IMG/VR virus record: IMGVR_UViG_3300019378_000003
From: a virus
Taxonomy: Duplodnaviria; Heunggongvirae; Uroviricota; Caudoviricetes
Length of the DNA stretch: 64,000 nucleotides
Reading direction: 5' to 3' (one strand)
Shown here: piece by piece, positions 438-51,070 of the stretch
How the letters are laid out: every line of letters starts with the position of its first letter
Position numbering within the stretch: position 1 is the stretch's first letter
Translations under genes and position numbers: made by a program
The notes under the pieces: generated by a model
What the model was told of the DNA's origin: nothing
Database searches by the model: none
The model's input: the letters and a program-made list of their open reading frames with translations, nothing else

Positions 438-950
438 ATGGAGTATGTACCAGTAGTAGAATTAGAACAAACTGATTTAACAGTTTTACCAGATAGTATT
501 AGCTATTATGAAAATTATATTTTAAAATAGTTAGATGATGTATTATTACAATATACAAACTCATCTAATTTATTAAATTATCATTATCCAGTAGGCTCTA
601 TTATTGAAGTGCTTAAAGCAGATTATGATCCTAATGGACAATTGCCAGGAGTATGGACAAGATTTGGAGAAGGCCGTACTATGATTAGCACTGGTGGAGA
701 TAATTCATTATTAGAAACTTCTATTGGAACTTTTAAGCATTTATTAACTATAGATCAAATACCTTCTCATACTCATAGATTAGGATGGAATAATGAAGAA
801 TCTCGTTAGCGTCGTGCTTCTTCTTGGACTGAAATTTGCTAGGGTTCAGGCTATAATGAAAGTTATATTACTATGTCTACTGGTGGAGGCGCAGCGCATA
901 ATAATGTTTAGCCGTACATTGTAACATTTAGTTGGAAGAGGGTGTCTTAA
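438..950 (+). CDS. Phage tail-collar domain protein (paralog 2), 4 in-frame TAG
   Basis: ATG 438, same frame as track ORF 609..809. Translation gives 'TFKHLLTIDQIPSHTHRLGW' and 'GGGAAHNNV(TAG)PYIVTF', with TAA at 948-950. TAG at 909-911 sits on the conserved Gln of the HNNxQPY motif. Confidence 0.6.
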
Positions 951-1519
951 TGGCCACCGTAAAAAATTATATTTTAAATGTTAATGATCAAAAAGTATAT
1001 CCTAAAATTAAAGCGTCTCAAGTTTATATTCCTAGTTTAAATATGTCTTTAGAAGAGTATTATGGCAATGAGACTTTAACATTTTAGGACTATATTGATT
1101 TAATTTTGCCTATTGGTTTTATTTATAAAACTACTCGAGAAATTGATTTAAATAATTTTAATTTTGATAATTAGTCAGTGCATTGGTTTTGGGAACAATT
1201 GGAAGCAGGACATATTTTAGTTGGAGAGGGTTCTTATACTGATAGTAACAGCGAAACAGCGACTTTTTATCCTCTTGGTACTGAAACTGAAAATGCACTA
1301 ACAGGTGAATGGCGTCATACATTAACCGTAGATGAAATTCCTTCTCATAATCATGGTTTGCCTAAAGATGGTTCTGATGATGGAGAAAATTATTATGACG
1401 TAGGAGATTCTCGGACTTCAGCAGTATCAGCTTTTTATACAGGAGGTACTGGTGGTTCCACCCCTCATAATAATATGATGCCAGCAAAAACAGTTTATAT
1501 GTATCGAAGGGTGGTATAA
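950..1519 (+). CDS. Phage tail-collar domain protein (paralog 3)
   Basis: ATG at 950 overlaps the preceding TAA (taATGg). It is in frame with track ORF 1178..1519, which reads 'EWRHTLTVDEIPSHNHGL...GGSTPHNNMMPAKTVYMY'. Upstream in-frame TAG codons are read through. Confidence 0.55.
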
Positions 1520-1522
1520 CAT

Positions 1523-1708
1523 ATGGCAGCAAGTACAATCACACAAGATGAATTGCAAAAATTTTGGAATGCTTTTAAATTAGAATTGGAAGCTTCTGCC
1601 CTAAAACCTTATGATACAATTTTATTTAAAGATTAGGGTAATAATGCAATTCATAGTATGTAGTTTATTGATGGAGTAGTTACTTCTCAAGAGCAAACTA
1701 CAAATTAA
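1523..1708 (+). CDS. Small hypothetical protein (about 61 aa, 2 TAG codons)
   Basis: ATG 1523 follows the previous stop. Translation MAASTITQDELQKFWNAFKLE...TN* holds only if TAG is sense. No recognisable homology. Confidence 0.3.
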
Positions 1709-1734
1709 AATAATGGTAGAAAAGAGGCTTCAAT

Positions 1735-2265
1735 ATGGTTTTAAATCAAGATGGTTTAAGATTATTGTGGCAAATAATTTAGGCTGAAATTGATAAATCT
1801 AAAAATTCTTCTATTGTAGACGGAATTTATTTTAGAGATCAAGAAAATGGATATACATATTTATTAGAATTTATCAATGGAAATTTAGTATCTAGTGGTA
1901 AAGCAGTTTCTATTTATGTGACTTTAACCATACCTAGCGATGTTTTATTTATCAAGGGAGAAATAGTGGATCCATCTTATTATTAGATTATTGCTCGTTG
2001 TGAAGATGGAAGTGAAAAAATTCTTAAAGGATGTGATATAAGTACAATTCAAAGTAATGGTACTGTTTCAGTCTCTTATGAAGAAATGGGTACAATTTAT
2101 ACTGATACCATTAATCTTTCATCTTATAATTTTGTGGATAGTATTACTACCGCTTTAAAAGATTTTACTTATAATACTAATGCAGATGGTACATATACAT
2201 TAAAAGATTACATAGGAACAAGTACGACCTTGACAATTCCAAATAATTATGCTATAATTTTATAA
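1735..2265 (+). CDS. Hypothetical virion protein whose C-terminus begins a BspA-type LRR (possible N-terminal module of the fibre/LRR protein)
   Basis: ATG 1735 to TAA 2263-2265 with 2 in-frame TAG. The C-terminus 'TYTLKDYIGTSTTLTIPNNYAIIL' looks like the first LRR_5 unit. Confidence 0.4.
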
Positions 2266-2278
2266 AGGAGGGTAAAAA

Positions 2279-4885
2279 GTGGCTAGACTATTAAATTTTA
2301 GAAATGAACCATAGGTTACAGCGATTACTATTCCTAATCGTATTTAGTTATCAGATACAAATTTTGCTCAAGCTTTTCGAAATATGGCTAATTTACAATC
2401 AGTTACTATTACTCATCCTAATATTACAATTTTAGATTAGGCATTTGAAAATGACAAAGCATTACAAACATGTACATTTCCAGAACATAATAAAATTACA
2501 TCTATGTATCGTGCATTTAATGGGTGTTCTAATATGACTAGTGCTCCTTAGAGTGGAGCAGAAGTTATTAATATGGCTTATGCATATTATAATTGCTATT
2601 CTATGACTGGTAATGCTCAATGTGGTCCTAAAGTTTTTAGTATGTCTCATGCATATACTAATTGTAGTAATATTTCAGGCCCAGCAGCTTGTTCTAATAG
2701 TGTTCGCAATTTTGATTATGCTTATCATAATTGTACTAAATTAACTGCTGCGGCATGTGGCGCAAATGTTACTAATATGGATTATGCTTATTATAATTGT
2801 ACTAATTTAACTACTGCGGTGTGTGGATTAAATGTACCAACTATGAATTATACATATTATAAATGTTCTAAATTAACTGATGCTGTATGTGATCGTAATG
2901 TTGTAAGTATGAATTATACATATGCTTATTGCACTAATCTTACTACAGCTAACGTAGGACGTAATGTTACAGAATTAAAATCAACATATAGAAATTGTAT
3001 TAAATTAACTGATGCTGTTTGCGGTCCTAATGTTATAGAGATGGTTAATACATATGAAAACTGCACTAATTTAACTACAGCCGCATGTGGAAATTAGGTT
3101 ACTTATATGAATGGTACATATGCTAATTGTCATAAATTAGTTACTCCTATATGTGGACCAATGGTAACTTTAATGGATCACACTTATAGTAGTATGAGTT
3201 AGAGCTCATTATAGACGAATAGTGGTTCATATATATATATAAATAAGCGTTATTATCATGGTACAGGTTGTAAAAATTTAACTACTGCAGTATGTGGTGA
3301 ACGAGTAACAAATATGTATTATACATATGCTAGTTGTGCAAATATTACAACAGCAATTTGTGGAGACCAAGTTACTGAAATGATTGGTACTTATGGTAAT
3401 TGTGTTAATTTAACAACTGCTGCTTGTGGACCATCTGTAACCTTGATGGATTCTACATATTCTATTCCTTATGGTTTTTATGCTAGTGGCCGTTATAAAA
3501 ATAATAATGGCATTCCAGGAATTTTATATTCAGAAGAAACTGGTACAATCGGTGATACCTGGTATGGATGTTCAAGTTTAACCGAAGCAGTTTGTGGAGA
3601 TTCAGTAGTAATGATGGTTAATACATATCGTGAATGTACTAATTTAACCACTGCAGCAAGTGGTCCTGTTGTTACTTTAATGGATAACACTTATACTAAT
3701 TGTTTTGTTCCCGCAGTTGTTCCTGATAATAGTCTAACAGCGTATAATCTTTACTCTGATGGATTAGGTTTAGTAACACCTATTTGTGGACCATTAGTTC
3801 AAGAAATGAGATATACTTATGCTAATTGTCAATCTTTAACATCATTTGTTTGTGGAGCAGAAGTAAAAATAATGGATCATACTTATGCTTTGGCCGAATC
3901 AGACTACTCTGATTGGTTCCTTGGCGATGAAACATATACCATAACTGAAAATAGAACTGCAAAATGGAGACAATCGGTTAGTGCAAAACGTGGGCCAACT
4001 ACTCCAGTATGTGGCGCAAATGTTACAGATATGATAGGTACATATAAAGGCCGACATAGTTTAACTTCTGCGGTATGTGGTGCTAATGTAGTAAATATGA
4101 TTGAAACTTATGCTGGATGCGCATATTATATTTCTAAAATGATAGAATATTATAATGCAACTTGGGCTTCAGGCGAAGATCCAGATTATGACACATATAA
4201 TTATTCAATGGATTATCTGAATTATTCTTCTGGCATTACTACTGCAGTATGTGGAGCAAATGTAATAAATATGCATGGTGCATATATGTATTGTAGCGGT
4301 ATTACAAATAAAGCAGCTTGTGGAGCAAACGTAGTGGATATGTCTTATGCTTATGCTTATTGCGGAAGAGAAAATTATTTCTTTAACGGCAAATCTGGCG
4401 TAGATACATATGGTTATGGTGGTTTGAACACTCCAGTTGTTGGTGCGAATGTAGTTAATATGCAAGGTGCATATATGGATTGTTATCCTATTGGTACCGC
4501 AAAATGTGGTGCAAATGTTGAAGATATGTCTTGGGCCTATTATAATTGTAGAAGTTTAACGACTGGTGTATCAGGCGCAAATGTTACTAATATGAGTTAT
4601 ACTTATGGTTATTGTCTAAGCTTGAAGGGTAATTTAAATATTGCATCTGAATATGTATATGATGCTTATGGTATTTTTGAAGGTCGAGGATATAATATTG
4701 CTGGAGATGAAATTACTCCAACCTTATTAAACATTCGAGTGCCTTATGGTTCTACTACTTTTGATTCTTTTTATAATGAAGATTTATGCGGAGAAGGTAG
4801 AATTGTTTGGGACACAGAAGATGATACAGGAACAACTTGGACCTGTACAAATACTCGTTATAATTTAAAATTAATCGGAGCTTAA
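2279..4885 (+). CDS. Large BspA-like leucine-rich-repeat (LRR_5) protein of about 868 aa, with many 22-aa repeats ('M.YTY.NCTNLTTAVCG.NVT.'), TAG-recoded
   Basis: GTG 2279 follows RBS AAAGGAGGG. It shares frame 2 with track ORFs 2573..3097 and 3314..4885. The gaps between them translate without TAA/TGA when TAG is Gln. The N-terminus reads 'VTAITIPNRIQLSDTNFAQAFRNMANLQSVTI', a classic LRR_5 pattern. Confidence 0.6.
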
Positions 4886-4911: not shown

Positions 4912-5844
4912 ATGAAAAAATATAATCGTAATATTGATATTATTATTCCTGCTTATAATGTAGCAGATAATATTTTGTTTAGATGTCTGGCTAGTATCGC
5001 TTGCCAAGATATTATTTCTGAATTAGAGGTTACTATTGTTGATGATGCTTCTACAGAATAGAATTATCAAAATGTAATTAATTAGTTTTCTTCAATGTTA
5101 AAAATTAATATTTTACGCTACGAAACTAATGGTGGACCAGGAGTAGCTCGTCAATATGGTTTAGATCACACTTCTAATGGATATATTACTTTTATTGACG
5201 CTGATGATACTTTCAATGGTGCTTTTGCTCTTAAAGCTTTGCGCAATGCTATTGAAATGAATAATGGTTTATATCAAATGTCAGTTGGAGTTTTTGATGA
5301 AGTACATGAAACAGACATTCCTGAAGGAACTGGACCAATGTTAATGAGCCACGAAAAAGATTTAGTATGGATGTTCGGTAAAATGTATCGTCGTAGCTTT
5401 ATTGACAAATATGGTATTCATTTTCATGAGACTTCAAGAGCCAATGAAGATAATGGATTTAATACTTGGTGCCGCCTTTGCATGAATGATAAAGAGTAGA
5501 TTAACTTTATTGCTGCACATGTTTATTATTGGCATGAAAATTTAAATAGTATTACGAGAATTAATGATCATCAATATAGTTATGGTAGTTCAGATCGAGA
5601 TAGTTTTTACGGTTATGTTGAAAATATGATTTTTGCAATTCAAGAGGCAAAAAAGAAAAATCCTTACAATGGTTTTATTACTATGTGGGCTGTAACTTGT
5701 ATGATACATTTATATCAATATTATATTGAATGTGCTGCAAGAGCTCCGCAACATGCTCCAGGTAATTTAAAACAATGTAAAAAATATTATGATGCAATTT
5801 TTAAAGAACTTGAACCTACAATTTCAAAAGAAATTATGGCATAG
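4912..5844 (+). CDS. Family-2 (GT-A fold) glycosyltransferase
   Basis: ATG 4912 is in frame with track ORFs 5095..5499 and 5626..5844. Translation reads 'IDIIIPAYNVADNILFRCLASIACQD...VTIVDDAS...GGPGVARQYGLD...GYITFIDADDTF', which carries the GT2 DxD signature. 3 in-frame TAG. Confidence 0.6.
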
Positions 5845-5953
5845 CATTATAATGATATAATGAAAAATGCTTATATGGGAGATAAGTTAAATAATATTAT
5901 TCCTTGTATAGGTTTATATGAGTTTTTAGATAAATTAAAGGAGGAAAATACAG

Positions 5954-6634
5954 ATGGCTGACGCTTATAAAATTTATACTTCTAGCTTAGTTGGTATTCA
6001 AGATGGTGGTACTGACGGCAGTACTGCAGCAGAAGCTAGAGAAAATTTAAATGTAGTTGGTTATACTGTTGTTCCCGAACTCAGTGGAGGCTCAGATTTT
6101 GCCTCCACTGAATTTTTACCAATAGCTGGTGGAACGATGACAGGACCGCTTACTTTAGAAGCTGATTTAATTGGTATTGACGGTGACTTTTCTGGTACTT
6201 TAAGCGCTTCAAGTGTAAAAGGTGCGGTATGGAATGATTATGCCGAATATCGTATTTTAAATGGTAAAAATGAAGCTGGCAGATGCGTAATTGAAACAGG
6301 CAATGATGATTTAATTTGGTCTCATGAACGCATGTTACCAGGAGCTATGATTATTTCCGATACTTTTGGATTTTCTATAGGAGAGACAGAAAAAGCTACT
6401 GCTCCAATTGCTGTGGCTGGTAGAGTATTAGCATATCCTAATGAAGATCGTTCTACATATAAAGCGGGCGACGCAGTATGTTCTGGTCCTTATGGTACTG
6501 TTTCTAAAATGTCTAGAAAAGAAATTATGATGTATCCAGAACGTATTATTGGTATCGTTTCTTGCGTTCCTACTTATGAAATTTGGAATGATAAAATTCA
6601 AGTTAATGGTCGCATTTGGATAAAAATAAAATAA
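5954..6634 (+). CDS. Tail-fibre-like protein
   Basis: Intact 226-aa ORF after RBS AAGGAGG. It contains 'FLPIAGGTMTGPLTL', the N-terminal motif common to many phage tail fibres. Confidence 0.45.
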   Translation: MADAYKIYTSSLVGIQDGGTDGSTAAEARENLNVVGYTVVPELSGGSDFASTEFLPIAGGTMTGPLTLEADLIGIDGDFSGTLSASSVKGAVWNDYAEYRILNGKNEAGRCVIETGNDDLIWSHERMLPGAMIISDTFGFSIGETEKATAPIAVAGRVLAYPNEDRSTYKAGDAVCSGPYGTVSKMSRKEIMMYPERIIGIVSCVPTYEIWNDKIQVNGRIWIKIK

Positions 6635-6648
6635 AGGAGGTATTTATT

Positions 6649-6987
6649 ATGAAATTAATTATTCAAGGACAAGAGCAATATCCAATTAAAATTAATAAAT
6701 ATCATCGTAATTTTATGAAAGTACATACTTATGCAGGCGCAGTTAATTTTGAATTAGAAATAGATAATGAACTTGAAAAAAATATATAGTTTTTGCAAGC
6801 ATTATATGGTTAGAGTAAATAGATTGAGCAAATTCAGGTATTTAGTGATAAAGACATGTTAATTGCATTTTTAGTTTTTGAAAATGGTTATATTAGTAAT
6901 TTGACTGATTCAATTAACGAAAAAGGCAAGCGAACTGTTTTGTTTACTATTACTTTTGAAAGTCTTAATCCTATGATTTTTTCTTGA
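6649..6987 (+). CDS. Hypothetical protein (112 aa, 3 TAG)
   Basis: RBS AAGGAGG plus ATG 6649. The frame is continuous to TGA 6985-6987 only if the three TAG codons at about 6787, 6811 and 6820 are sense. Confidence 0.35.
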
Positions 6988-7033
6988 CTTTTAAAAAAAA
7001 ATATGGTATTATTTTAAAGAAAAGGAGGGTTAT

Positions 7034-7550
7034 AATGGCTCAAATACTTTTCGATGATTACCTTGCTGCAAAAACAGCGGTATATAATATGTGGGATGAA
7101 GTGTTTGGAATTAAAATTAATTGGAATTTATTTGCTACTGACACTTAGGCCAATAGTCGTAGATCAGAAAATACATATGATGAAGCAGATAAAGAAGAAC
7201 ATACAGTACCATCTGAAGTTGCTGTATTTCCAGACGAGCGTACCGAAACAAATATTAAGCCGCTAAATTAGGCATATCGTTTTAACGAAATTAATAGTGC
7301 AGAAAAAAATGGTAAAATTACTGCCGACGCAGTAAATGCTTTATATAATTTAATGCAGGTTGCAGAAGAAGAAGCTCATAGTGGCGCTGGTTATGGAGCA
7401 GATAAAACTACACACTGGTAGACTTATAATAGCTCTAAAAATACTTCAGTAAAAACATCTTAGTATAGTGGTTATGACTCATATAATAGTAATCGACATT
7501 CTGGTTGGTGTACCGGTCGTAATTCTAGTAATATGGGAACCAACTGGTAA
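7034..7550 (+). CDS. Hypothetical protein with Ser/Tyr/Asn-rich C-terminal tail (putative modified substrate/precursor A)
   Basis: RBS AAGGAGGG plus ATG. 171 aa with 4 TAG. The tail reads '...TYNSSKNTSVKTSQYSGYDSYNSNRHSGWCTGRNSSNMGTNW*'. Confidence 0.4.
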
Positions 7551-7564
7551 GGAGAGTATTAATA

Positions 7565-7864
7565 ATGGCGTATAATTGGAATAATATGTTTGGAACTATA
7601 GTTGAAAAAGATTAGTCAATAAAGCATGAAAATAGTTTAAACCATATTATAGAAACAGCTACAGAGTATCTAGAATACCATTGTTCAGCTCATAATACAG
7701 AAAAATTTGCTTCTTGGGATGTAACTTATAATGGTACATTGAAGTCTAGTCATGATTCAACTTATAAAAGTTATAATTCTTATAATAGCGGCAAGTTAAG
7801 TACAAATTATTCTGGATATAATAGTAGTCATAGGTATTCTTATTTTGGAGGAAATGTAGGATAA
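7565..7864 (+). CDS. Hypothetical protein with Ser/Tyr/Asn-rich C-terminal tail (putative precursor B, paralog of 7034..7550)
   Basis: 99 aa. The tail reads '...TYKSYNSYNSGKLSTNYSGYNSSHRYSYFGGNVG*' and shares the 'YSGY(N/D)S...YNS' motifs with the upstream gene. Its stop overlaps the rSAM start (TAATG). Confidence 0.4.
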
Positions 7865-9240
7865 TGGATTACGAGAAAAAGGCGTTAGAACATTGTGTAT
7901 CACTTTCATTGCATTGGTCTTCTGATTGTAATATGGCATGTTAGTATTGTTATATTGAAAAAGATAAAAAAGCAATGGCAACCTATAATAAAGCATTACG
8001 AGAAGCTTTAGAAAATGGTACATATGTTAATAATATAAAAAATAAATTTGAACATATTAAAGATAATATTGAAAATTTAAGTTTGTGGGGTGCAGAACCT
8101 ACAATTAATGGTATATATTTTAAAGATACTATTTATCAATGCTTAGATTTTTTTCCAAATGTACATTCTTTAATGTTTTCGACAAATGCATTGTTAGGTG
8201 CAGATATTATTTACGAACAATTTTATTTACCTTTATTAAGTTATGCAGAAACTAATTCACGTCCTCTTACTTTTGAATTACAGCTAAGTTTAGATGGTCC
8301 TCCTGAATTTAATGATAAATCACGTCATGAAGGAGCCACTAAAAATACTTTAAATACTTTATATACTTTACTTGAAAGAACTCCATTTAATTGTAAATAT
8401 TTTAAATTTAGCGTTTCTACTAAAGCCACTCTTGATATTAGTTATATGAGAGAAATGGTTGAAGGTGGAATAGAAAAATTTTAGTGGTATTATGATTTCA
8501 TGAATGAAATTCATGGAAAAGCACATGATATTATTAAAAATAATTCTACAGTTAGTGATTGTCATGTATTTGGAATACCTACATTAGTAGATCCAGGATA
8601 TTATACAGTTGAAGATGGTAAAATATTTGCAAAATGGATATCAATGTTAAAATATGTAGACCGTAGTAAATGGCATGAGGCAAGTCAACATGTACCATTG
8701 TTTTATTAGTGTTTAAATACTGTTCTCGAAGCAGAAAACATACACAATCCTATTGCTTAGGGATATAATTATTTTTCTTGTTCTTCCGGAAAATATAATT
8801 ATAGTGTTGATTATGATGGTACAATATATACTTGTAATCGTTTATGTCGAAATGCAGCTTTATCAGATAATTTAAAATATAAAGGATCTATGCTTTCTAA
8901 CTCTAATGTGGATCATCCTGCTGGCTCAAAATGGTTAAAACGTAATTATGCTAATTGGGTTTTTCATGAAGATATTGTAGCTCGAAAAAATTTTTTAGAT
9001 GCATTAATTTTTATGATGGCTAAAGCTGGCTAGATTGATAAATTATATATTGAAAATGATGAAGCTCGATTAATAATGTTTTATATGATGAGCGGTATTT
9101 ATTGTCATATAGGAGCAGAAGAAGATTATACAAGTAATCCTTTTATTCCTCCTGCTAGTTATTTGCGCTTATTGGGAAATGGAGCTCAATAGGAGTTGGA
9201 AAATTATTTTAAATTAGAAAGAGTAAGAGGAGTTTTGTAA
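7864..9240 (+). CDS. Radical SAM enzyme with C-terminal SPASM domain (anSME/peptide-maturase-like)
   Basis: Translation gives 'HWSSDCNMACQYCYI' (CxxxCxxC) and 'SLWGAEPTIN' (GGE-like), then a Cys-rich C-terminal 'YFSCSSGKYNYSVDYDGTIYTCNRLCRN'. Frame 1 is continuous through ORFs 7975..8484 and 8500..8709 and on to 9240 when TAG is sense. Confidence 0.65.
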
Positions 9241-10610
9241 TGGAAAATTGTATTATTAATACTACTGGTTTAGAAGCTTATCAATATGAAAATTAGAAAT
9301 TGGCAGACAATTTTTTAGAAACATATTTTTTCTCTAATTTTAAATATAGTCATACAGCTTCTAAAAAATCTTTAGAGTTAATTATTTCTCCCAAATGTAA
9401 TTTAGGATGTAAATATTGCTATATTCATAAACATAAAAAACATATTTTTAATGAAGATATTTTTAATGAAGAATTAACATTAAAAAATTTAACTTTAATT
9501 TTAAAATGGCTTGAAAAAAATGAATTTAATCCAGATTTAGATATTTTTTCAGGAGAATTATTTGCTTAGGAAATTGGTCTAAAAATTTTACAAGTAATTT
9601 ATGATCATGAGTTACATTTGCCTGAACATTTAAGATGCAAAGTTATAACAATTCCTACAAATTTTACTTTTTTAAATTCTGATACATTGACAGAAAAAAT
9701 CACTAATTTTCAAAAATAGTTTGAACAAATTAATATCCATTTATTTTTAAGTGCGAGTTTTGATGGAGCTCATATGGAACAAAATCGTCCTTATACCAAG
9801 ACATTAGATTTTGATATTAATACCTCTCGCGATGATGAATATTATAATAAAGTTTTTCAATATTGTAGTGAACATCAATATGGATTACATCCAATGATTT
9901 ACAGTAAAAATATTGCTAAATGGAAAGAAAATTTCTTATGGTTCCAAGAAAAAATGGAACAATTTAATATTCCTTGGGAAAATTTATATTTACTTAATGT
10001 TCGCAATGAAGAATGGGACGATGTCAGTTTAAAAGAATATTATAATTTTATTTTGTTCTTATATGATTGGGTATACCAAAAAGTTGGATGTAACACAGAA
10101 TATTTAGTAAATTTTATTCTAAAAGCACACGGTTTTAATATAATGGCTAGTCCTTTAACTCGAGTAGGAAGAGGCTTAACTTGTGGTTTATAGAATACTT
10201 TATGCGTTCGACTTAGTGATTTAATGGTTTATCCTTGCCACAGGACAGGATATGAACATTATTATTGTGGATAGTTCATAGAAGATGAGGATAAAATTTT
10301 AACATATAAAAATAAAAATGCTGAATTGCTAATTACAGTATATTCTGTTAACAAAGAAGGAATGCCCATGTGCTCTCAATGTCCTATTAATAAATTATGT
10401 GTAGGACAATGTTTAGGAGCTTGTCATGAAAGTAATAACAATTTATTTGTACCAATTCCTTCCGTTTGTGCTACCGTATATACATTATTAGCAGCAACTA
10501 TTGAAGGTCTAACTAAATATCAAGCTTATGATTTACTGTTATCTCAAGTTGATGCTTCAATAGCAAAGCAATTAGAGTTTGTGAAAAAGGAGTTAAATAA
10601 TGTTAAATAA
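9240..10610 (+). CDS. Second radical SAM/SPASM-domain enzyme (tandem paralog)
   Basis: Translation gives 'SPKCNLGCKYCYI' (CxxxCxxC), then the SPASM region 'GLTCGL(Q)NTLCVRLSDLMVYPCHRTGYEHYYCG...CSQCPINKLCVGQCLGACHE'. Frame 3 is continuous through ORFs 9300, 9774 and 10326 when TAG is sense. Confidence 0.65.
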
Positions 10611-11178
10611 TTTTGTAAAAATGACTTATGGCGAAGCTCGTCATGAAGTATTAAAAGAATTAGATAATAGAGGTCCAATTGGTAGTTTTTTATTATCTCG
10701 CCATCCAGACTTGACAAATATAATTGAATATGTTTGTCGTTATTTAGAAAAAGCAATGACTCCTGATAGTGATCCTAAAGATTTAGGAAATTTTCCGAGT
10801 AATATTAAAACTAGTTTGGAATTTTTAACTTTAAGATTTCCATCTTATTTAATTTTATATTCAGAACATGATTGGAATTGCTTTTGCAGCGCATTATTCT
10901 TATTGTTAGATAATTTTTTAAATGCTGGTGAAACTTTCATTAATTCTGTTGCCGAAGATGATTGGTCTAAAGAAGAAAAAAAATATATCAATCGTATTCG
11001 AGAATAGCTCAGTGCGATATTAAGAATTATCGATATCGGTGCTGGTTATAGTGAATTATGTAAAGCTTCTGCTTAGATTGTAGAAGAATTAAAAACTTGG
11101 TCTCAATCTCGTCCTGCGGCGTTTAAATTATCTGAAGCATATTTAAAATCTCTTGGAATCGGAGGAACAGAGGAATGA
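10600..11178 (+). CDS. Hypothetical protein
   Basis: Track ORF 10600..11007 extended through 2 TAG codons to TGA 11176-11178. No homology recognised. Confidence 0.35.
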
Positions 11179-11474
11179 CTTTATATTTTAATAATGAACG
11201 TGAACATCCTATTGAGGTTCAAAATGTATCTCGTGAATTAATTGCAGATGCTAACGGAAAATATTAGATTTTTGTACGCATTATTGTAAATGAAAGATTT
11301 AATGACGTTATTGCTTATTGTAATTCTTATGCATCACAAGATATTGTAAGTATGGAGCTATATAATGGAGAAGAATTAACTAATCATTATACACTAAATG
11401 CTGGTAGAGTAAATTCTATTCATGAAGTTGTAGAAAGTACTTCTCAAGAAGTCACAATGATTATTGAATATTAA
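11175..11474 (+). CDS. Hypothetical protein (about 100 aa)
   Basis: ATG follows RBS GGAGGAACAGAGGA and overlaps the upstream TGA. One TAG. Ends at TAA 11472-11474. Confidence 0.3.
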
Positions 11475-11477
11475 TAA

Positions 11478-11506
11478 TTAGGCGATGTTTTTTAACATCG
11501 CCTAAA
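11478..11506 (+). terminator. Stem-loop (GGCGATG...CATCGCC), possible weak terminator/attenuator upstream of gene 11532
   Basis: A perfect 7-bp GC-rich stem with an 8-nt loop, but the downstream U-tract is poor. Confidence 0.3.
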
Positions 11507-11531
11507 TTAATATTGAAAGGAGTTATTTAAT

Positions 11532-12323
11532 ATGGCTTTATTTAAACCAATGTCCGGTTTAAGCACATCACTTAATAATTAGTCTTTAAAAGAAGGTTAT
11601 GCATATTTTACTACAGATGATGCTAAATTTTATATTGATTATAAAGATGGCAGTACTTTAAAAAGAAAAGCAATTAATGCAGATTTATATGCTACTTGTG
11701 CAACTGCTGCAGCAACCGCAGCGAAAGTTGCAACATTAACAACAACTGGTAATTTTGGACTTTTCACTGGCGTACATGTTACAGTAAGATTTACTTATGC
11801 TAATAATGTAGAGAATGCTACTTTAAATGTAAATAGTACTGGCGCAAAAGCTATTAGATATAAAAATGCTGCAATTACAAAAAATTATCTTAAAGCCAAT
11901 GGTACTTATACTTTCGTTTATGATGGTTCTTATTGGCAGCTAGTGGGAGAAATTGATACTAATACTAATACTCAAATGAGAGTATATCGACAGACTTCAG
12001 GATATAATAGTGCAGATTATCCTATTCTAGTAAGTCGAACTGCAACAACTGATATCGGTACTGCTGGCACCAATAGTTCATATTCAGGAGTATATGCAGT
12101 TATAGGACAAAATGGTACATATACTCCAACCATTAATCCTCATACAGGATTGATAGTTGCTAAAGGTAATGTAAAATTTCCTGCTGGTGTAGGTTCAACT
12201 ACAAATCCAGTATATATTAATGCTTCTACTGGTTTAATTACTGCTACTGGATTAGACTTATCTCCAATTACTGATGCAATGATTTATGAAATTACTGGTT
12301 ATACTGCTGCCGATTTAGCATAA
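11532..12323 (+). CDS. Hypothetical structural protein (about 263 aa)
   Basis: RBS AAAGGAG plus ATG. Continuous with one TAG. Thr/Ala/Gly/Asn-rich beta-type composition typical of virion proteins. No specific family recognised. Confidence 0.4.
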
Positions 12324-12341
12324 TAAGGAGGTAATTATAAA

Positions 12342-12467
12342 TGTCTATCTTTAAAAAGAAAAAAATTGATGAAGAATTAGAATTTGAAACTGCTGATACA
12401 ACAGAAAATGATGAGCAGGTTTGGATTCGAAAGGATGGAAAATTAGTTTTAGTTGAGGAGGATTAAA
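12342..12467 (+). CDS. Small acidic protein (41 aa)
   Basis: RBS AAGGAGG plus ATG. Translation is MSIFKKKKIDEELEFETADTTENDEQVWIRKDGKLVLVEED*. Confidence 0.25.
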
Positions 12468-12468
12468 A

Positions 12469-13371
12469 ATGGTTACAATTAAATTGAATACTCAAGATAA
12501 AATGGTAACTATGTTACAATACACCTTCAATACTAAAGTAAGTGGAACCGCAGATGCAGAATTTGTATCTGCGGTTAAATCTTATCAAAAAACCAAGAAA
12601 CTTACTGCTGATGGTATTGTTGGTAAAAATACATATAAGGCTCTTCTTGATGATTTCCCAACTCTTAAAAAGGGTAAGAATAAAAAAAGTAATTGGAATA
12701 GAGCTTGGCAGTCATTTCTTGGAGTAAAAATTGATGGTATCTTTGGTTCTGATACCAAGAAAGCCACTAAAGATTGGCAAAAGGCTAATGGTCTTACCGT
12801 TGATGGCGTTGTAGGAGATGCCACTCTTTCTAAGGCTTTTGGCATTACCGTTTCCGTTTCCGCGCCGAGCACCTCTAACGGCACTTCTGTTGTAAATAAA
12901 CAGCCTGTAAATTATAAGCAGTATGATTCTCGCTGGGGTAAAATCGTTTACACCAAGAATAATACCTATGACAAGAAACAGACTATTAGTAATTCTGGAT
13001 GCGGTCCTACCGCCGCGGCAAATATTGTTGCTACTTGGTGGGATAGTTCCGTTACTCCTGCTACTCTTGCCGCTTTATCTGTAAAGCATGGCTATCGCAC
13101 TTCTAATAGTGGTACTGCTTGGGGATTCTTTAAATTTATTGCTGAAAAATATGGCGCCTCTAAATTCGTTCAGACTAGCTCATATGCTACTGCTGAAGCC
13201 GCAATTAAAGAAGGCGCTTATGTTGTATGTTCCGTTGGTCCTGGTGTTTGGACTAAAGGTGGTCACTTTATTACTTGGTGGAAAGTTGATAATACTTATG
13301 TATATATTAATGACCCAGCAAGTGCTAGCTCTTCTCGCGCTAAATCTAAGAAGAGTAATCTAAAAAATTAG
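12469..13371 (+). CDS. Endolysin: two peptidoglycan-binding (PG_binding_1-like) repeats plus a C-terminal papain-like Cys peptidase
   Basis: An intact 300-aa ORF. It carries duplicated 'LTADGIVGKNTYKAL' and 'LTVDGVVGDATLSKAF' repeats. A Cys-His segment follows: 'NSGCGPTAAANIVATWW...GGHFITWW'. It contains no TAG codons. A holin gene lies immediately downstream. Confidence 0.55.
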   Translation: MVTIKLNTQDKMVTMLQYTFNTKVSGTADAEFVSAVKSYQKTKKLTADGIVGKNTYKALLDDFPTLKKGKNKKSNWNRAWQSFLGVKIDGIFGSDTKKATKDWQKANGLTVDGVVGDATLSKAFGITVSVSAPSTSNGTSVVNKQPVNYKQYDSRWGKIVYTKNNTYDKKQTISNSGCGPTAAANIVATWWDSSVTPATLAALSVKHGYRTSNSGTAWGFFKFIAEKYGASKFVQTSSYATAEAAIKEGAYVVCSVGPGVWTKGGHFITWWKVDNTYVYINDPASASSSRAKSKKSNLKN

Positions 13372-29825: not shown

Positions 29826-29858
29826 TAATTATATCATAAATTTCGTAAAAAGTCAATT
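29826..29858 (-). promoter_or_regulatory. Promoter TTGACT-N17-TATAAT
   Basis: Family member, upstream of the helicase. Confidence 0.5.
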
Positions 29859-31662
29859 AAAAATACCAACTATGAGTAGAAGAAATCTGGAAGTCTTCAA
29901 TCTCAATTTGTGGAGCAATGCCGTTAAAATTATTTTCAGCACAACGTCCAATAATATCCATTTTGATTACTGTATCAGCGGATTGAAAATATTGATTAGT
30001 TTGTTCATATAATTCTTCTCCATAACCAAACTTAATACAAGAAATCTTGGTTCTTGGAATAAGAATTTTTAAAGTTCCTTTTCCCATTAATAAAAATTCC
30101 TTAGAAGTCACAGGAACTCCTTTGATAACTACTAAAGGTTCTTTTACTCCTTGACCCCATAAGTCTTTATGTTTTGCGATTTCTAAAATATGAGAACCTA
30201 AATTAGGCTCTTTGTAATCCCAGATGAAATCTACATTATACATTACCTCTGGAGCAGTTGGAAAATGTTTGCGAACATATGCCTTAAATAATTCTAAGCC
30301 ATCGGGAGTAAAACCTACACCAAATGCCATTGGATGTCCTTCAGCATATAGACACAAGCCAGTATTCTCAATAAATTTTCGCCAATCATCAATACCAGAA
30401 GTGATATAGCCGCGAGCGGAACCCTCCCAAGTAATTTCAGTTTTTGGAGTGAAAGTAATAGATTGTCCAAAAATTCCCTATGCAAAACTTTCAGGGGCAA
30501 TTTCTTTTACTCTTTTGGTTAAAATTAAAGTGGGTTTTTGATATTCGCTCATAATTTGATTGGCAACAAGACCATTTAAATTACTTTCCATTTCACCATC
30601 AACTTTAACGATGATAATAGAGTTTTGGTCTAAGCCTTCTTCTTTAATCTATTTACGAATTGCTTCAAGAGCAGTCTATTTTTCTTTATCCTAATGGTTC
30701 TTTACATTGCCCGCCGTGCGAAGAGCCTGAGTAAGAACAGTTTCTTCCTGACCTTTCCCTCCACGTTTAGTAGAAGGAACTAATTTTCCAGCTTCATATT
30801 CCAACATTGAGCGGAATAAAATATCTTTTTCTGATGGATTACCAGAACGACACATTGCATTTACAAAAGGGGCAATATACCAAGATATTGTAAATGGAGT
30901 GAGTTGGCCTTGAATCTTAAATTCATTTTTCTCCATCATGCCAACAATAAAGGGATTACGAGGCTATTGCATACCAGCCCATGTAAGATAACGCGTTTCC
31001 AAAGAGCGCAAATCCATCATATCGGCAACCATACCAAGAGCCACCAAATCAAGATAATCATTGGCATATGATTGTTTTAAAAGCCTATCTAAAATCAGAC
31101 AAAATTTATATACTACGCCAACACCAGATAATGCCTTATTGGGATAAGAGCACATCTAATTATTTACAATAACCGCTGGGTCAAAAATATCAGGTTCGGC
31201 ATCATGGTGATCTAAAACAATAATATCAATACCTTTTTCTGCCAACTCTTTATGAATTTGATTTTCATTTGAAGAAGCATCAGGTACGATAATTAATTTT
31301 ACATCTTCTGGAATAGCTTCAACATTGATACCATGATGTTTATCGCTATGGAGATTATAAGAAATTAAATTCTATACAGATGCTGGGAAAACACGATATA
31401 GATAGTTAAGCAAAACGGCAGATGAAGTATATCCATCACAATCGCTATCTACCTAAATATGAATCCTCTCTTGATGAACAAGAGTTTTTATTAATAGTGA
31501 AGCAGCATTAAAAATATTTTCAAATGAGCCAGGAGTAAAGCATTCACTTACACTTGGAGTAATATATCTCTACATTTCTTCTTGGGTAAGACCTCGATTG
31601 TGGAGAATCTATTCTAGCAAGCCTCTCTCTTGCTCTGGTTCTTTTATTAAATTATAGCGCAT
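29857..31662 (-). CDS. recJ: RecJ-like DHH-family ssDNA exonuclease (about 600 aa, about 10 in-frame TAG)
   Basis: A single frame links four track ORFs when TAG is Gln. It contains 'VDSDCDGYTSSAVL' (DHH motif I/II) and 'VLDHHDAEP' (DHH motif III). RBS GAGGT plus ATG at about 31662. Confidence 0.6.
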
Positions 31663-49603: not shown

Positions 49604-51070
49604 TTATTCATCCTTTGCGGCAATCTTGCCACCGACGAAACCGGCGAGCAGGGTTGCGGGGTCAATGCCCGTAGCGTCCTTAACGCCAGCCATAATCTGG
49701 CTCATAGTAGTGGTAATGTCACTTACCATCTTTGCCTGATTGCCTTCGCCATACATGGTGATAGAATCAACATTGGACAGCGGAGAAGCAACAGCCTGAG
49801 CAATCAGAGGCATGGCCTGGAAGTACATTTCCAGCACAGAGGCTTCGCCCATCTTCTTCTGAGCTTCGGCCTTCTTGTCAATACCTTCAGCTTCGGCGAG
49901 GCCCTTAGCCTTGATACCTTCTGCCTCAGCGGCATACTTAGCAGCGATACCTTCGGCTTCCTTCTGAGCCTGAATGAGTTCAGCTTCAGCCATCATCTTA
50001 CGGGCTTCAGCTTCAAGAGCAGCAGTCTGCTTTACGGCTTCGGCCTTCTGAACTGCTTCATAGGCAGCGGCTTCAGCGGCTTTCTGACGACGAACGAGTT
50101 CTGCTTCAGCAGCCTTTTGGGTCTTATACAGCTGAGCATCAGCTTCCTTGCGGACGGTTGCGTCCAGTTCACGCTCACGCAGGTCAATCTTCTGCTTCTG
50201 AAGTTCAACTTCGCGCTCCATCTGAGCAATCTTTGCGTTAGTAGCGGTAACGTCCAGTTCTTTCTGCTGGTCGGCCTTCTGAATATCGTAGGCCATGTCA
50301 GCAGCAGCCTTTTTAACTTCAGACTGGCTCTTCAGTTCAGCAGCACGGATTTCCAGAGCATTATTCTGCTCGGCAATCTGAGTAGCCGCCTGAACCTTTG
50401 CCTCATTGGCAATACGCTCATTTTCGGCTTCCTTGACCGCGACGTCTTTCTTTGCATCGCTTTTGGCAATTGCGGCAGCCTTCTTAATGGATTCGATGTT
50501 ATCAATACCAAGGTCATTGATAACGCCATTTTCATCACGGAAATTCTGAACATTGAAGTTTACAATTTCCAGACCAAGTTCAGCCATATCAGGTGCTGCA
50601 TTTTCCAGAACCTTCTGAGCAAACTTCTGACGATCCTGTACCATATCAGTCAACTTCATCTGACCAATAATTTCACGCATATTACCTTCAAGAACTTCAC
50701 GAGCCTTATCACTAATCATCTTAGCAGGCTGATTCAGGAAGTTCTTCGCAGCAACACTCATTAACTCAGAATTAGTACCAATGCGGACATTAACATTGGC
50801 ATCGGTCCAAACATTGATATAATCTGCAGTTGGTACTGCGCTCTGAGTTTTCACATCAACGCCGATAGCGCCAAGATACAGCTTATCCAGTCGTTCAATG
50901 AACGGGATGCGCAAACCGGCTTTACCAACAATGATTCGCAGGTCCTTGCGAGGACCAGAAATCAAATAAGCTTGGTTCGGGGGCGCCTTAATATAGCTTA
51001 TACAGATGATAACTACGAGGGCGGCAAGTGCGAGAACAATACCAACGATAGAAGCAATAGTTCCGAACAT
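49604..51070 (-). CDS. Flotillin / SPFH (band-7) domain protein, GC-rich (about 50%)
   Basis: An N-terminal TM helix is followed by 'YIKAPPNQAYLISGPRKDLRIIVGKAGLRIPFIERLDKL...', then a long Ala/Glu/Lys-rich coiled-coil, typical of flotillin/YqiK. Confidence 0.7.
   Translation of the reverse strand: MFGTIASIVGIVLALAALVVIICISYIKAPPNQAYLISGPRKDLRIIVGKAGLRIPFIERLDKLYLGAIGVDVKTQSAVPTADYINVWTDANVNVRIGTNSELMSVAAKNFLNQPAKMISDKAREVLEGNMREIIGQMKLTDMVQDRQKFAQKVLENAAPDMAELGLEIVNFNVQNFRDENGVINDLGIDNIESIKKAAAIAKSDAKKDVAVKEAENERIANEAKVQAATQIAEQNNALEIRAAELKSQSEVKKAAADMAYDIQKADQQKELDVTATNAKIAQMEREVELQKQKIDLRERELDATVRKEADAQLYKTQKAAEAELVRRQKAAEAAAYEAVQKAEAVKQTAALEAEARKMMAEAELIQAQKEAEGIAAKYAAEAEGIKAKGLAEAEGIDKKAEAQKKMGEASVLEMYFQAMPLIAQAVASPLSNVDSITMYGEGNQAKMVSDITTTMSQIMAGVKDATGIDPATLLAGFVGGKIAAKDE

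Follow-up and report, generated by a model that had tools for sequence, protein, structure and literature searches.

The subject of this analysis is a stretch of 64,000 nt from a virus of the class Caudoviricetes (IMG/VR record IMGVR_UViG_3300019378_000003; hereafter the window) and, within it, a compact cassette in which genes for two repeat-bearing proteins precede genes for a pair of enzymes of the radical S-adenosylmethionine (rSAM) type. A preliminary description made by a model from the letters alone (the sequence-only reading) had drawn attention to four consecutive genes of this kind. When open reading frames (ORFs) are called with the standard genetic code, all genes between positions 7000 and 11500 are interrupted by TAG; taking TAG as a sense codon turns the same interval into an unbroken series of genes on the plus strand. 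The four genes are confirmed by this read-through, with the correction that the first of them, gA, starts at 7035 and not at 7034. Two conserved members, g5 and g5b, had been missed and are added here (Table 1). In-frame TAG codons, said to be present in all members of the cassette, are indeed found in each (4, 1, 6, 5, 2 and 1 from gA to g5b). Alignment with relatives supports glutamine as the amino acid inserted at these codons in the window phage. The TAG at residue 390 of rSAM1 corresponds to Gln in 12 of 14 relatives and to a TAG codon in the thirteenth; the one at residue 318 of rSAM2 faces Gln in 8 of 11 relatives, and positions 110 and 318 are invariant Gln columns of the rSAM2 alignment.

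The genes are tightly packed. TAATG overlaps, correctly noted in the sequence-only reading, join gB to rSAM1 (7862-7866) and rSAM1 to rSAM2 (9238-9242). The g5 gene starts inside the end of rSAM2 (11-nt overlap) and shares an ATGA with g5b, so that start/stop overlaps couple gB through g5b. On the 5' side, a promoter-like site is followed by a ribosome binding site, AAAGGAGGG, and the gA start codon; the site is a candidate promoter by its match to the consensus only. On the 3' side, a hairpin probably marks the boundary of the unit. Its stem is perfect and no T-run is found on the plus strand, so a role as terminator is presumptive. Strand-biased TAG usage suggests that the cassette is expressed late: TAG occurs in nearly every gene of the plus-strand block and is absent from most of the replication genes, which lie on the other strand. 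Altogether, this arrangement is best explained by a self-contained late transcription unit spanning 7035..11477.

Table 1. Features of the cassette and of the region upstream of it (positions in the window).
Feature	Position	Strand	Remarks
gA, long repeat-protein paralogue, 171 aa	7035..7550	+	TAG read-through ORF
gB, short repeat-protein paralogue, 99 aa	7565..7864	+	TAG read-through ORF
rSAM1, radical-SAM enzyme, 458 aa	7864..9240	+	CX3CX2C; partial SPASM cysteines
rSAM2, radical-SAM/SPASM enzyme, 456 aa	9240..10610	+	CX3CX2C; seven SPASM cysteines
g5, all-helical accessory protein (predicted), 192 aa	10600..11178	+	Conserved module member
g5b, 99 aa	11175..11477	+	Same-position proteins in relatives
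Promoter-like site, TTGACT-17-TATTAT, TG before -10	6984..7012	+	Joint-best-scoring plus-strand match in 6400..12600
Hairpin, perfect 12-bp stem, 4-nt loop	11478..11505		Immediately 3' of g5b stop; probable 3' boundary
GT2 glycosyltransferase	4912..5961	+	Pfam Glycos_transf_2, 68.9 bits; outside the bracketed unit
Gp10_C baseplate genes	438..1519		Upstream of cassette; basis of virion context in the window
BspA-type leucine-rich-repeat protein, 833 aa	2384..4885	+	LRR_5, 60 bits; Cys-rich repeats of about 23 aa

Loci from relatives, designated below by L and a number, were collected from database gene contexts and from three collection scans, and were annotated with local hidden Markov models (HMMs). 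The order of rSAM1 and rSAM2 was counted only in loci with at least 600 nt of upstream sequence.

Both enzymes carry the CX3CX2C motif that had been ascribed to them. The residues involved are C22/C26/C29 in rSAM1, invariant in 13-15 sequences, and C53/C57/C60 in rSAM2, invariant in 35 sequences. Judged by this motif, the two proteins are predicted members of the radical SAM superfamily. Against Pfam PF04055 each of them scores 22.2 bits (gathering score 29.5), and several homologues bear a precomputed PF04055 label. Homology between rSAM1 and rSAM2 is limited to the radical SAM core. The cluster motif is preceded by about 20 residues in the former and about 50 in the latter, leaving no N-terminal extension in either. 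Both had been presented as SPASM enzymes, which is correct for only one of the two. The pattern CX9-15GX4C ... CX2CX5CX3C ... C (seven cysteines, two auxiliary clusters) is found in rSAM2 as C315, C333, C378-x2-C381-x5-C387-x3-C391 and C410, all invariant in the 35 sequences; the motif is thus complete, while the score against the SPASM model TIGR04085 is marginal (23.7 bits; cut-off 27). In rSAM1 the CX2CX5CX3C element is lacking. Since only C306-x12-G-x4-C324 and C414 are conserved in 13-15 sequences, the enzyme is better described as Twitch-like or as having a partial SPASM domain.

Comparison with characterized subfamilies placed the two enzymes in a neighborhood and in none of its families. 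Scores against PapB (NF047865) are 42 bits for rSAM1 and 50 bits for rSAM2 with a cut-off of 340; those against anSME (TIGR03942) are 36.4 and 27.6 bits with a cut-off of 349.45. The triceptide enzymes XyeB, FxsB, YhhB, AmcB and ChlB give 12-25 bits (cut-offs 362-450). Assignments to anSME, PapB, DynA, triceptide, SCIFF, QhpD, Hxs and viperin enzymes were all rejected on score. The possibility of an anSME acting on a sulfatase, raised in the sequence-only reading as a way in which it might fail, is not borne out: besides the low scores, the sulfatase signature C/S-x-P/A-x-R is absent from the six frames of the window. A defense-family search with PADLOC gave no match for the cassette. Profile searches against solved structures, aligning the core only, returned ChlB (9e-11), CteB (6e-10), anSME (4e-7) and SkfB (1e-3) as nearest to rSAM1, and CteB (3e-10) as nearest to rSAM2. 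The best relatives, all of them weak, are therefore peptide or protein maturases (PapB, DynA, anSME, CteB, ChlB, SkfB). By these comparisons, rSAM1 and rSAM2 appear to fall in the peptide/protein-maturase part of the superfamily, outside every described subfamily. Two rSAM2 homologues are of unusual size. In L066 (56..2326) an insertion of about 350 aa (possibly an intein or homing element) directly follows the CX3CX2C region; in L005 (6995..8842) the protein exceeds the normal length by about 150 aa.

The small proteins encoded upstream of the enzymes are paralogues. With compositional adjustment, gA and gB align at E = 4e-4, with 36 % identity over 69 aa extending from the helix of the N-terminal domain (N-domain) into the tails. 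Their N-termini, formerly thought unrelated, are thus versions of a domain found throughout the family. The claim that their tails are rich in Ser, Tyr and Asn is accurate for the window, where gB and gA rank first and second of 110 ORFs for combined density of these residues. In gB, an N-domain (MAYNW...EYLEYHC) that matches the family HMM at E = 3e-13 leads to a cysteine at the junction, Cys40, and to a 59-aa tail, SHDSTYKSYNSYNSGKLSTNYSGYNSSHRYSYFGG, made of units of about four residues, two small and two large. The square-wave autocorrelation of this tail reaches -0.72 for lag 2 and +0.59 for lag 4, a signal equalled or beaten by 5 of 5000 shuffles. In gA, two family helix motifs precede a 47-aa tail of Ser, Asn, Tyr, Thr and Gly with the same period of 4 (lag-4 autocorrelation 0.38; equalled or beaten by 20 of 5000 shuffles). 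The junction position of gA is a Ser where gB has Cys, and a Cys of gA is found near the C-terminus, in GWCTGRNSS. The N-domain HMM picked up a gA orthologue in L001 (3946..4320).

Among close homologues of gB, the residues Y38, H39, C40, H43 and N44 and the stretch from 59 to 83 are nearly all invariant; the tail is near-invariant and the N-terminus varies. This pattern points to purifying selection on the gB tail within that group. It also answers a doubt expressed in the sequence-only reading, namely that the tails might not be conserved.

Over greater distances the family changes too fast for sequence searching. A profile search with the gB family over 1.84 billion representative proteins recovered only 3 members, and synteny was used instead to identify partners. 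These range from 78 to 585 aa. What they hold in common is an N-domain of about 35 aa, M-a-[FY]-x-W...G-d-x-I...E-[IL]-[RK]-x-N-[IV]-D-x-[IL]-x-D-N-x-x-C, usually the junction Cys (all 14 short paralogues have it, at position 31-41), and a repeat with a period of 4 in which two small residues are followed by two larger ones. The long paralogue contains two or three copies of the N-domain or of its helix motif. Richness in Ser, Tyr and Asn, by which the proteins had originally been recognized, is not a trait of the family, since some members are devoid of Tyr. Between phages the repeats vary from Y/S/N to H/T/D, G/E/D/N/V, pentapeptides of S/N/G/K and C/F-rich forms. Many members are strongly acidic. 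One to few Cys are usually present (none in the L008 protein), and neither a signal peptide nor a peptidoglycan-binding domain is found. In L003 the repeats take the form AHRGSHNTS; gB itself contains SHDST and SHRYS.

The regularity of the repeats is evident in L063 and L064, whose partners (585 and 566 aa) consist almost wholly of continuous tetra- or octapeptide units (e.g., TVYT GQNT TVRS SYNA TVDS VDNV). In L064 the autocorrelation of Gly, Ser, Thr and Ala swings between -0.72 (lags 2, 6 and 10) and +0.72 (lags 4, 8 and 12), with values of about 0 for odd lags. The partner in L058 matches Pfam Gp5_trimer_C, the model for the triple-stranded beta-helix in the puncturing needle of T4, at 55.7 bits (gathering score 30.9), and that in L039 at E = 1.6e-5, below the gathering score. 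The tails of the window proteins are linked to these relatives by the common period-4 square wave. The same period may account for a motif bias: aromatic-x-Ser/Thr units are 1.63-fold more frequent than in shuffled sequences, and the reverse units are 1.64-fold more frequent, an equality predicted by period 4 alone; the enrichment is missing from six members. Since aromatic residues are lacking in some members, a Tyr-directed or cyclophane chemistry common to all was rejected. A collagen-like, period-3 structure and N-glycosylation sequons were considered and dropped by eye, the periodicity being 4 or 8 everywhere except in an unrelated (G-Y-S)n fiber of L006. This last, a collagen-like tail-fiber protein, and a 457-aa Cys-rich ORF with a GMGNEM motif resembling glycoside hydrolases by eye occupy the segment 3321..5602, 5' of rSAM1, in place of the usual repeat proteins. 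Three repeat proteins in two distant loci (L013, 5048..5643; L041, 5990..6403) end with K-C-G-G-E and a short hydrophobic stretch, defining a second conserved Cys site.

The g5 protein is predicted to consist entirely of helices, seven in number, with a mean confidence (pLDDT) of 84.7, and has a conserved C-terminal motif, (R/N)PxxF(K/E)LS(E/K)xYLxxL. Structure comparison gave no match resembling the recognition element (RRE) of RiPPs (peptides made by the ribosome and modified after translation), and no other significant structural relative. From the model, g5 would be an orphan helical protein and not an RRE. No family match was obtained for g5b, which has counterparts of similar size at the same position in L001, L003, L040 and L041. 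An RRE (PqqD-like winged helix) was found neither fused nor adjacent to the maturases, and no leader protease or exporter/transporter family is represented among the six genes. A neighboring Peptidase_C39_2 protein was considered as a leader protease and rejected. It is an endolysin, as indicated by its two PG_binding_1 domains and by its replacement in relatives with SpoIID, Amidase_3 or GH25-type lysins.

The gene order gA-gB-rSAM1-rSAM2-g5-g5b is conserved. The rSAM1 gene lies directly 5' of rSAM2 in 32 of 34 loci, and in most the gene after rSAM2 is g5. A protein with the N-domain and repeat is present in all loci whose flanks are long enough, L060 excepted; related phages therefore retain the repeat proteins beside the enzymes, the pairing whose absence would have counted against the sequence-only reading. 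In L006 and L012 the repeat proteins have been relocated 3' of g5 without loss of linkage. The two exceptions to the tandem arrangement, L008 (284..4526) and L009 (184..2378), form a minimal branch without rSAM1, where rSAM2 is directly adjoined by the repeat protein and g5 comes after it. The survey thus defines an invariant core of repeat protein, rSAM2 and g5, to which nearly all loci add rSAM1. Both enzymes are kept in loci that have a single repeat protein, which argues against a division of labor of one enzyme per paralogue. L008, whose repeat protein is free of Cys, and L009 both lack rSAM1 and the junction Cys alike, a hint that the two features are linked. The L060 locus (1012..3700) is divergent in a different manner: it contains a third rSAM-like ORF, a tetratricopeptide-repeat protein and, directly 5' of rSAM1, a 128-aa ORF in which a hydrophobic N-terminal segment is followed by HSSCHSSHSSCHSSHDSCHSS repeats (Cys/His/Ser, HSSC). 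No other member of the family is as RiPP- or HxsA-like.

Linkage is maintained in more than 30 diverged loci, under three genetic codes (TAG-sense, TGA-sense and standard) and in rearranged orders. That the small proteins belong with the enzymes in a single conserved functional unit, as proposed, is borne out by this survey. The rSAM2 family amounts to 208 database clusters at 90 % identity, many on contigs of 140-275 kb. Searches of 50,697 GenBank phages with the cassette (tblastn and blastn) yielded nothing at E <= 1e-5 and only noise at E <= 0.1. A single-sequence scan of IMG/VR gave no match; a profile scan of the same collection found relatives. Among 185,579 species genomes the module occurs in two, both short contigs of metagenome-assembled genomes (MAGs). 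As far as these collections reach, the module appears restricted to uncultured phages, and the family is without members in cultured bacteria. No description of the module was found in the literature.

Glycosyltransferases are a recurrent, non-universal companion of the module. In L059 (399..2894) rSAM1 is fused C-terminally to a GT1-family domain (53.5 bits; 26.4 for the threshold), the two sharing one ORF of 831 aa that is read with the standard code, and homologues of this domain adjoin the module in L006, L016, L061, L063 and L068. GT2 homologues do so in L013, L072 and the window, where the gene, reported near the cassette by the sequence-only reading, is found upstream of it and is possibly an optional partner. 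L041 carries an MGAT4A_C protein. In all, glycosyltransferases occur in about 10 of about 35 loci, a figure held down in part by short flanks, compared with the near-universal repeat proteins. Their recurrence supports a surface-exposed product rich in Ser, Thr, Asn and Tyr, and also lends itself to an explanation based on glycans (see below).

The cassette is located in the structural part of a large, gut-type, TAG-recoded phage. Its 5' flank encodes two Gp10_C baseplate proteins, a BspA-type leucine-rich-repeat protein, the GT2 enzyme and two ORFs without family match; on its 3' side are another ORF of the latter kind, the endolysin with its PG_binding_1 and Peptidase_C39_2 domains, and small membrane proteins. 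In relatives, Baseplate_J and Gp5_trimer_C proteins lie 5' of the module and endolysins 3'. A structural gene context is thus supported; the labels of tail-fiber genes given to the immediate neighbors are not, since no family model matched them. The BspA-type protein, encoded between the Gp10_C genes and GT2, is a candidate receptor-binding protein. The DNA polymerase III alpha subunit of the window has its top match (39 %) in Phass-1, a TAG-recoded human-gut phage, followed by SPbeta-like and Enterococcus phages; these matches and the presence of NrdD and its activase NrdG suggest that the host is probably an anaerobic member of the Bacillota. Three other genes, all on the minus strand, deserve mention. 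A RecJ-like gene (DHH/RecJ_OB, 29857..31662) contains 10 in-frame TAG codons, compared with 0-2 in neighboring replication genes, and is an outlier to the pattern of TAG in late genes only. An 822-aa protein (60110..62578) matches the Pfam models MVP_shoulder (72.7 bits) and Vault_3 (35.8 bits) and ends in a long coiled coil; phages do not usually encode proteins resembling the Major Vault Protein. The third gene (49604..51070), situated among those for replication, specifies a membrane-anchored SPFH/Band_7 protein of 488 aa that has a flotillin-like region.

The closest analogue of the cassette is HXS, an antiphage defense system with the gene order HxsD-HxsB-HxsC-HxsA (Li et al., Nat Commun 2026; PMC13128918). 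HxsB and HxsC are rSAM enzymes and HxsD binds HxsC; together they mature HxsA, a protein with five His-x-Ser repeats, which is processed at its N-terminus and gains a modification of +8 Da at SHRSS. The system is 99.7 % confined to Pseudomonadota, acts in the periplasm and binds DNA, its effector being exported and having a peptidoglycan-binding domain (PMC13128918). Common to both systems are two rSAM enzymes side by side, a small accessory protein and, as the substrate (a presumed one in the cassette), a protein with repeats rather than a short peptide; the His/Tyr-x-Ser units of gB recall those of HxsA, and no RRE-type logic has been demonstrated. However, rSAM1 scores only 13.7 bits against HxsC TIGR03977 (cut-off 267.9), the HxsB and HxsD models match nothing in the cassette, and the HxsA model matches none of 22 repeat proteins at E <= 1. 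HXS is bacterial and defensive, whereas the window module is phage-only and late, and its repeat proteins have their own N-domain, period-4 repeats, a length of at most 585 aa and no export signal.

Resemblance to the RiPP maturases (PapB, CteB, ChlB, XyeB, FxsB, DynA) lies in the full SPASM cysteine set of rSAM2, in their being the best matches of both enzymes, and in substrate genes that adjoin the enzymes and are hypervariable. In addition, the aromatic/His-x-Ser units of the module are similar to triceptide motifs (aromatic/His-x-x type; PMC12912966). The differences are considerable: scores are 5- to 30-fold under the cut-offs, the presumed substrates are long and repetitive, RRE, protease and exporter are wanting, there are too few Cys residues for several thioethers to form, and not all members have the aromatic motif. 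In particular, a PapB-type precursor has repeated Cys-x3-Asp/Glu units, unlike proteins with one to few Cys. The anSME and QhpD enzymes offer another parallel, as SPASM enzymes with weak matches here that act on folded or foldable proteins, at Cys or Ser or, as in the thioethers made by QhpD in QhpC, from Cys to Asp/Glu; yet scores are 20-36 bits against cut-offs of 349-453, and the window provides neither a sulfatase motif nor an amine dehydrogenase context. On the substrate side, the C-terminal triple beta-helix of T4 gp5 resembles the repeat proteins in its period of 4 or 8, its small residues in register and its baseplate/tail gene setting. In contrast to these proteins, gp5 needs no rSAM enzyme, lacks the added N-domain and junction Cys, and is far poorer in Tyr, His, Ser, Asn and Asp. 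The cassette would thus work in the manner of HXS and of the protein-modifying SPASM systems, while belonging to neither.

We thus envisage that the cassette is a late unit in which conserved rSAM machinery matures fibrous, fast-evolving virion repeat proteins, by a logic akin to that of RiPPs without being a classical RiPP system; we would put the odds of this at about even (roughly 0.5). A more specific version, somewhat harder to sustain, is that a dedicated SPASM/Twitch pair and an orphan adaptor introduce crosslinks or other radical modifications into a hypervariable beta-helical tail fiber or needle, which would represent a new class of radical-modified virion proteins, limited to phages of anaerobes. 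The gA and gB proteins would be matured by rSAM2 (SPASM) and rSAM1 (Twitch-like) with g5 and the small g5b. In the anoxic cytoplasm of the host, late in infection, the enzymes would recognize the conserved N-domain, with g5 perhaps acting as an adaptor in the way HxsD does for HxsC. By abstracting hydrogen they would then introduce one covalent modification, or a few, where domain and repeat meet or close by, conceivably a thioether joining the conserved Cys with a side chain situated a few residues downstream, carbon-carbon links of the His/Tyr-x-Ser type in the first repeats, or both. Before assembly, a fibrous appendage of the tail or baseplate, probably a trimer, would in this way be locked or functionalized, and in a subset of phages glycosyltransferases would subsequently decorate its Ser/Thr/Asn/Tyr-rich surface. 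The identity of gA and gB as substrates, their incorporation into the virion, and the site and chemistry of modification are all inferred. Of the two destinations offered by the sequence-only reading, a virion component is favored and a secreted product disfavored.

Several observations weigh against this proposal. Neither enzyme reaches the cut-off of any NCBIfam subfamily. Translational coupling implies about equal amounts of enzyme and substrate, which is odd for catalysts. The composition of the repeats is so variable that no one repeat-directed chemistry suits all members, nor can a Cys-based crosslink be universal, since Cys is missing from the junction of gA and from the whole of the L008 protein. 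The gA and gB proteins of the window do not match Gp5_trimer_C (PF22178), and AlphaFold2 yielded no confident fold for gB (pLDDT 49). Finally, the gene that follows g5 in L008 is a portal gene (phrog_213) and not a tail gene.

The alternative closest to the sequence-only reading is that gA and gB are leader-core precursors of a classical RiPP, whose crosslinked core would be freed at lysis as a bacteriocin, a signal or a weapon against competitors. A conserved N-terminus followed by a variable C-terminus is a leader-like layout, the top matches of both enzymes are RiPP maturases, triceptide-like aromatic-x-Ser/Thr motifs (as defined in PMC12912966) are 1.6-fold enriched, the Cys/His/Ser-repeat ORF of L060 resembles a genuine precursor, and the unit has its own promoter-like site next to lysis genes that would release a soluble product. 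Other findings oppose it. The reverse motif is equally enriched and six members lack the enrichment; the homologous "cores" reach about 530-550 residues, in partners of 566-585 aa, and match a structural beta-helix domain (Gp5_trimer_C); close homologues keep the "core" better than the "leader"; RRE, leader protease and exporter are all missing; and the family is not at home in bacterial genomes, the usual seat of RiPP clusters (two short MAG contigs among 185,579). The leader/core picture was accordingly abandoned in the form in which it was proposed, and we regard a classical RiPP as unlikely.

A glycan pathway, in which the rSAM enzymes would make or tailor an unusual sugar for the glycosyltransferases to place on the Ser/Thr/Asn/Tyr-rich fiber proteins or on the host surface, strikes us as equally improbable. 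It would account for the fusion of rSAM1 to GT1 in L059, for the GT1 homologues that adjoin the module in five further loci, for the GT2 homologues in three (one of them the window), and for the MGAT4A_C protein of L041. Among Twitch-type rSAM enzymes there are sugar dehydrogenases, BtrN being an example. Set against this are the uneven occurrence of glycosyltransferases (about 10 of about 35 loci, when repeat proteins are near-universal), the peptide or protein maturases, rather than sugar-modifying rSAM enzymes, found as nearest relatives, and the lack of nucleotide-sugar synthesis genes in the module. More doubtful still is a phage counterpart of HXS in function, the matured repeat proteins acting in the envelope or on nucleic acid, for instance in superinfection exclusion or as a counter-defense decoy. 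The shared architecture (PMC13128918) and the His/Tyr-x-Ser units (SHDST and SHRYS in gB, AHRGSHNTS in L003) are what commend it. But the Hxs models are unmatched and PADLOC is empty, the repeat proteins have neither signal peptide nor peptidoglycan-binding domain, the acidity of many members is incompatible with DNA binding, and the genes belong to a structural block, late and rich in TAG, in phages that appear to be lytic.

If the proposal of rSAM-matured virion repeat proteins is correct, it would extend radical SAM chemistry to structural or late proteins of phages, for which no report was found in the literature and no example in 50,697 deposited phage genomes. The combination of conserved enzymes with extremely variable repeat substrates would make the module a natural system for studying how radical enzymes recognize proteins, and it may supply protein engineering with new ways of crosslinking. 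In architecture it would be a phage-side counterpart to the bacterial HXS defense system. It further suggests that some phages of the gut and of anaerobic digesters need an anoxic host cytoplasm for the assembly of infectious particles.

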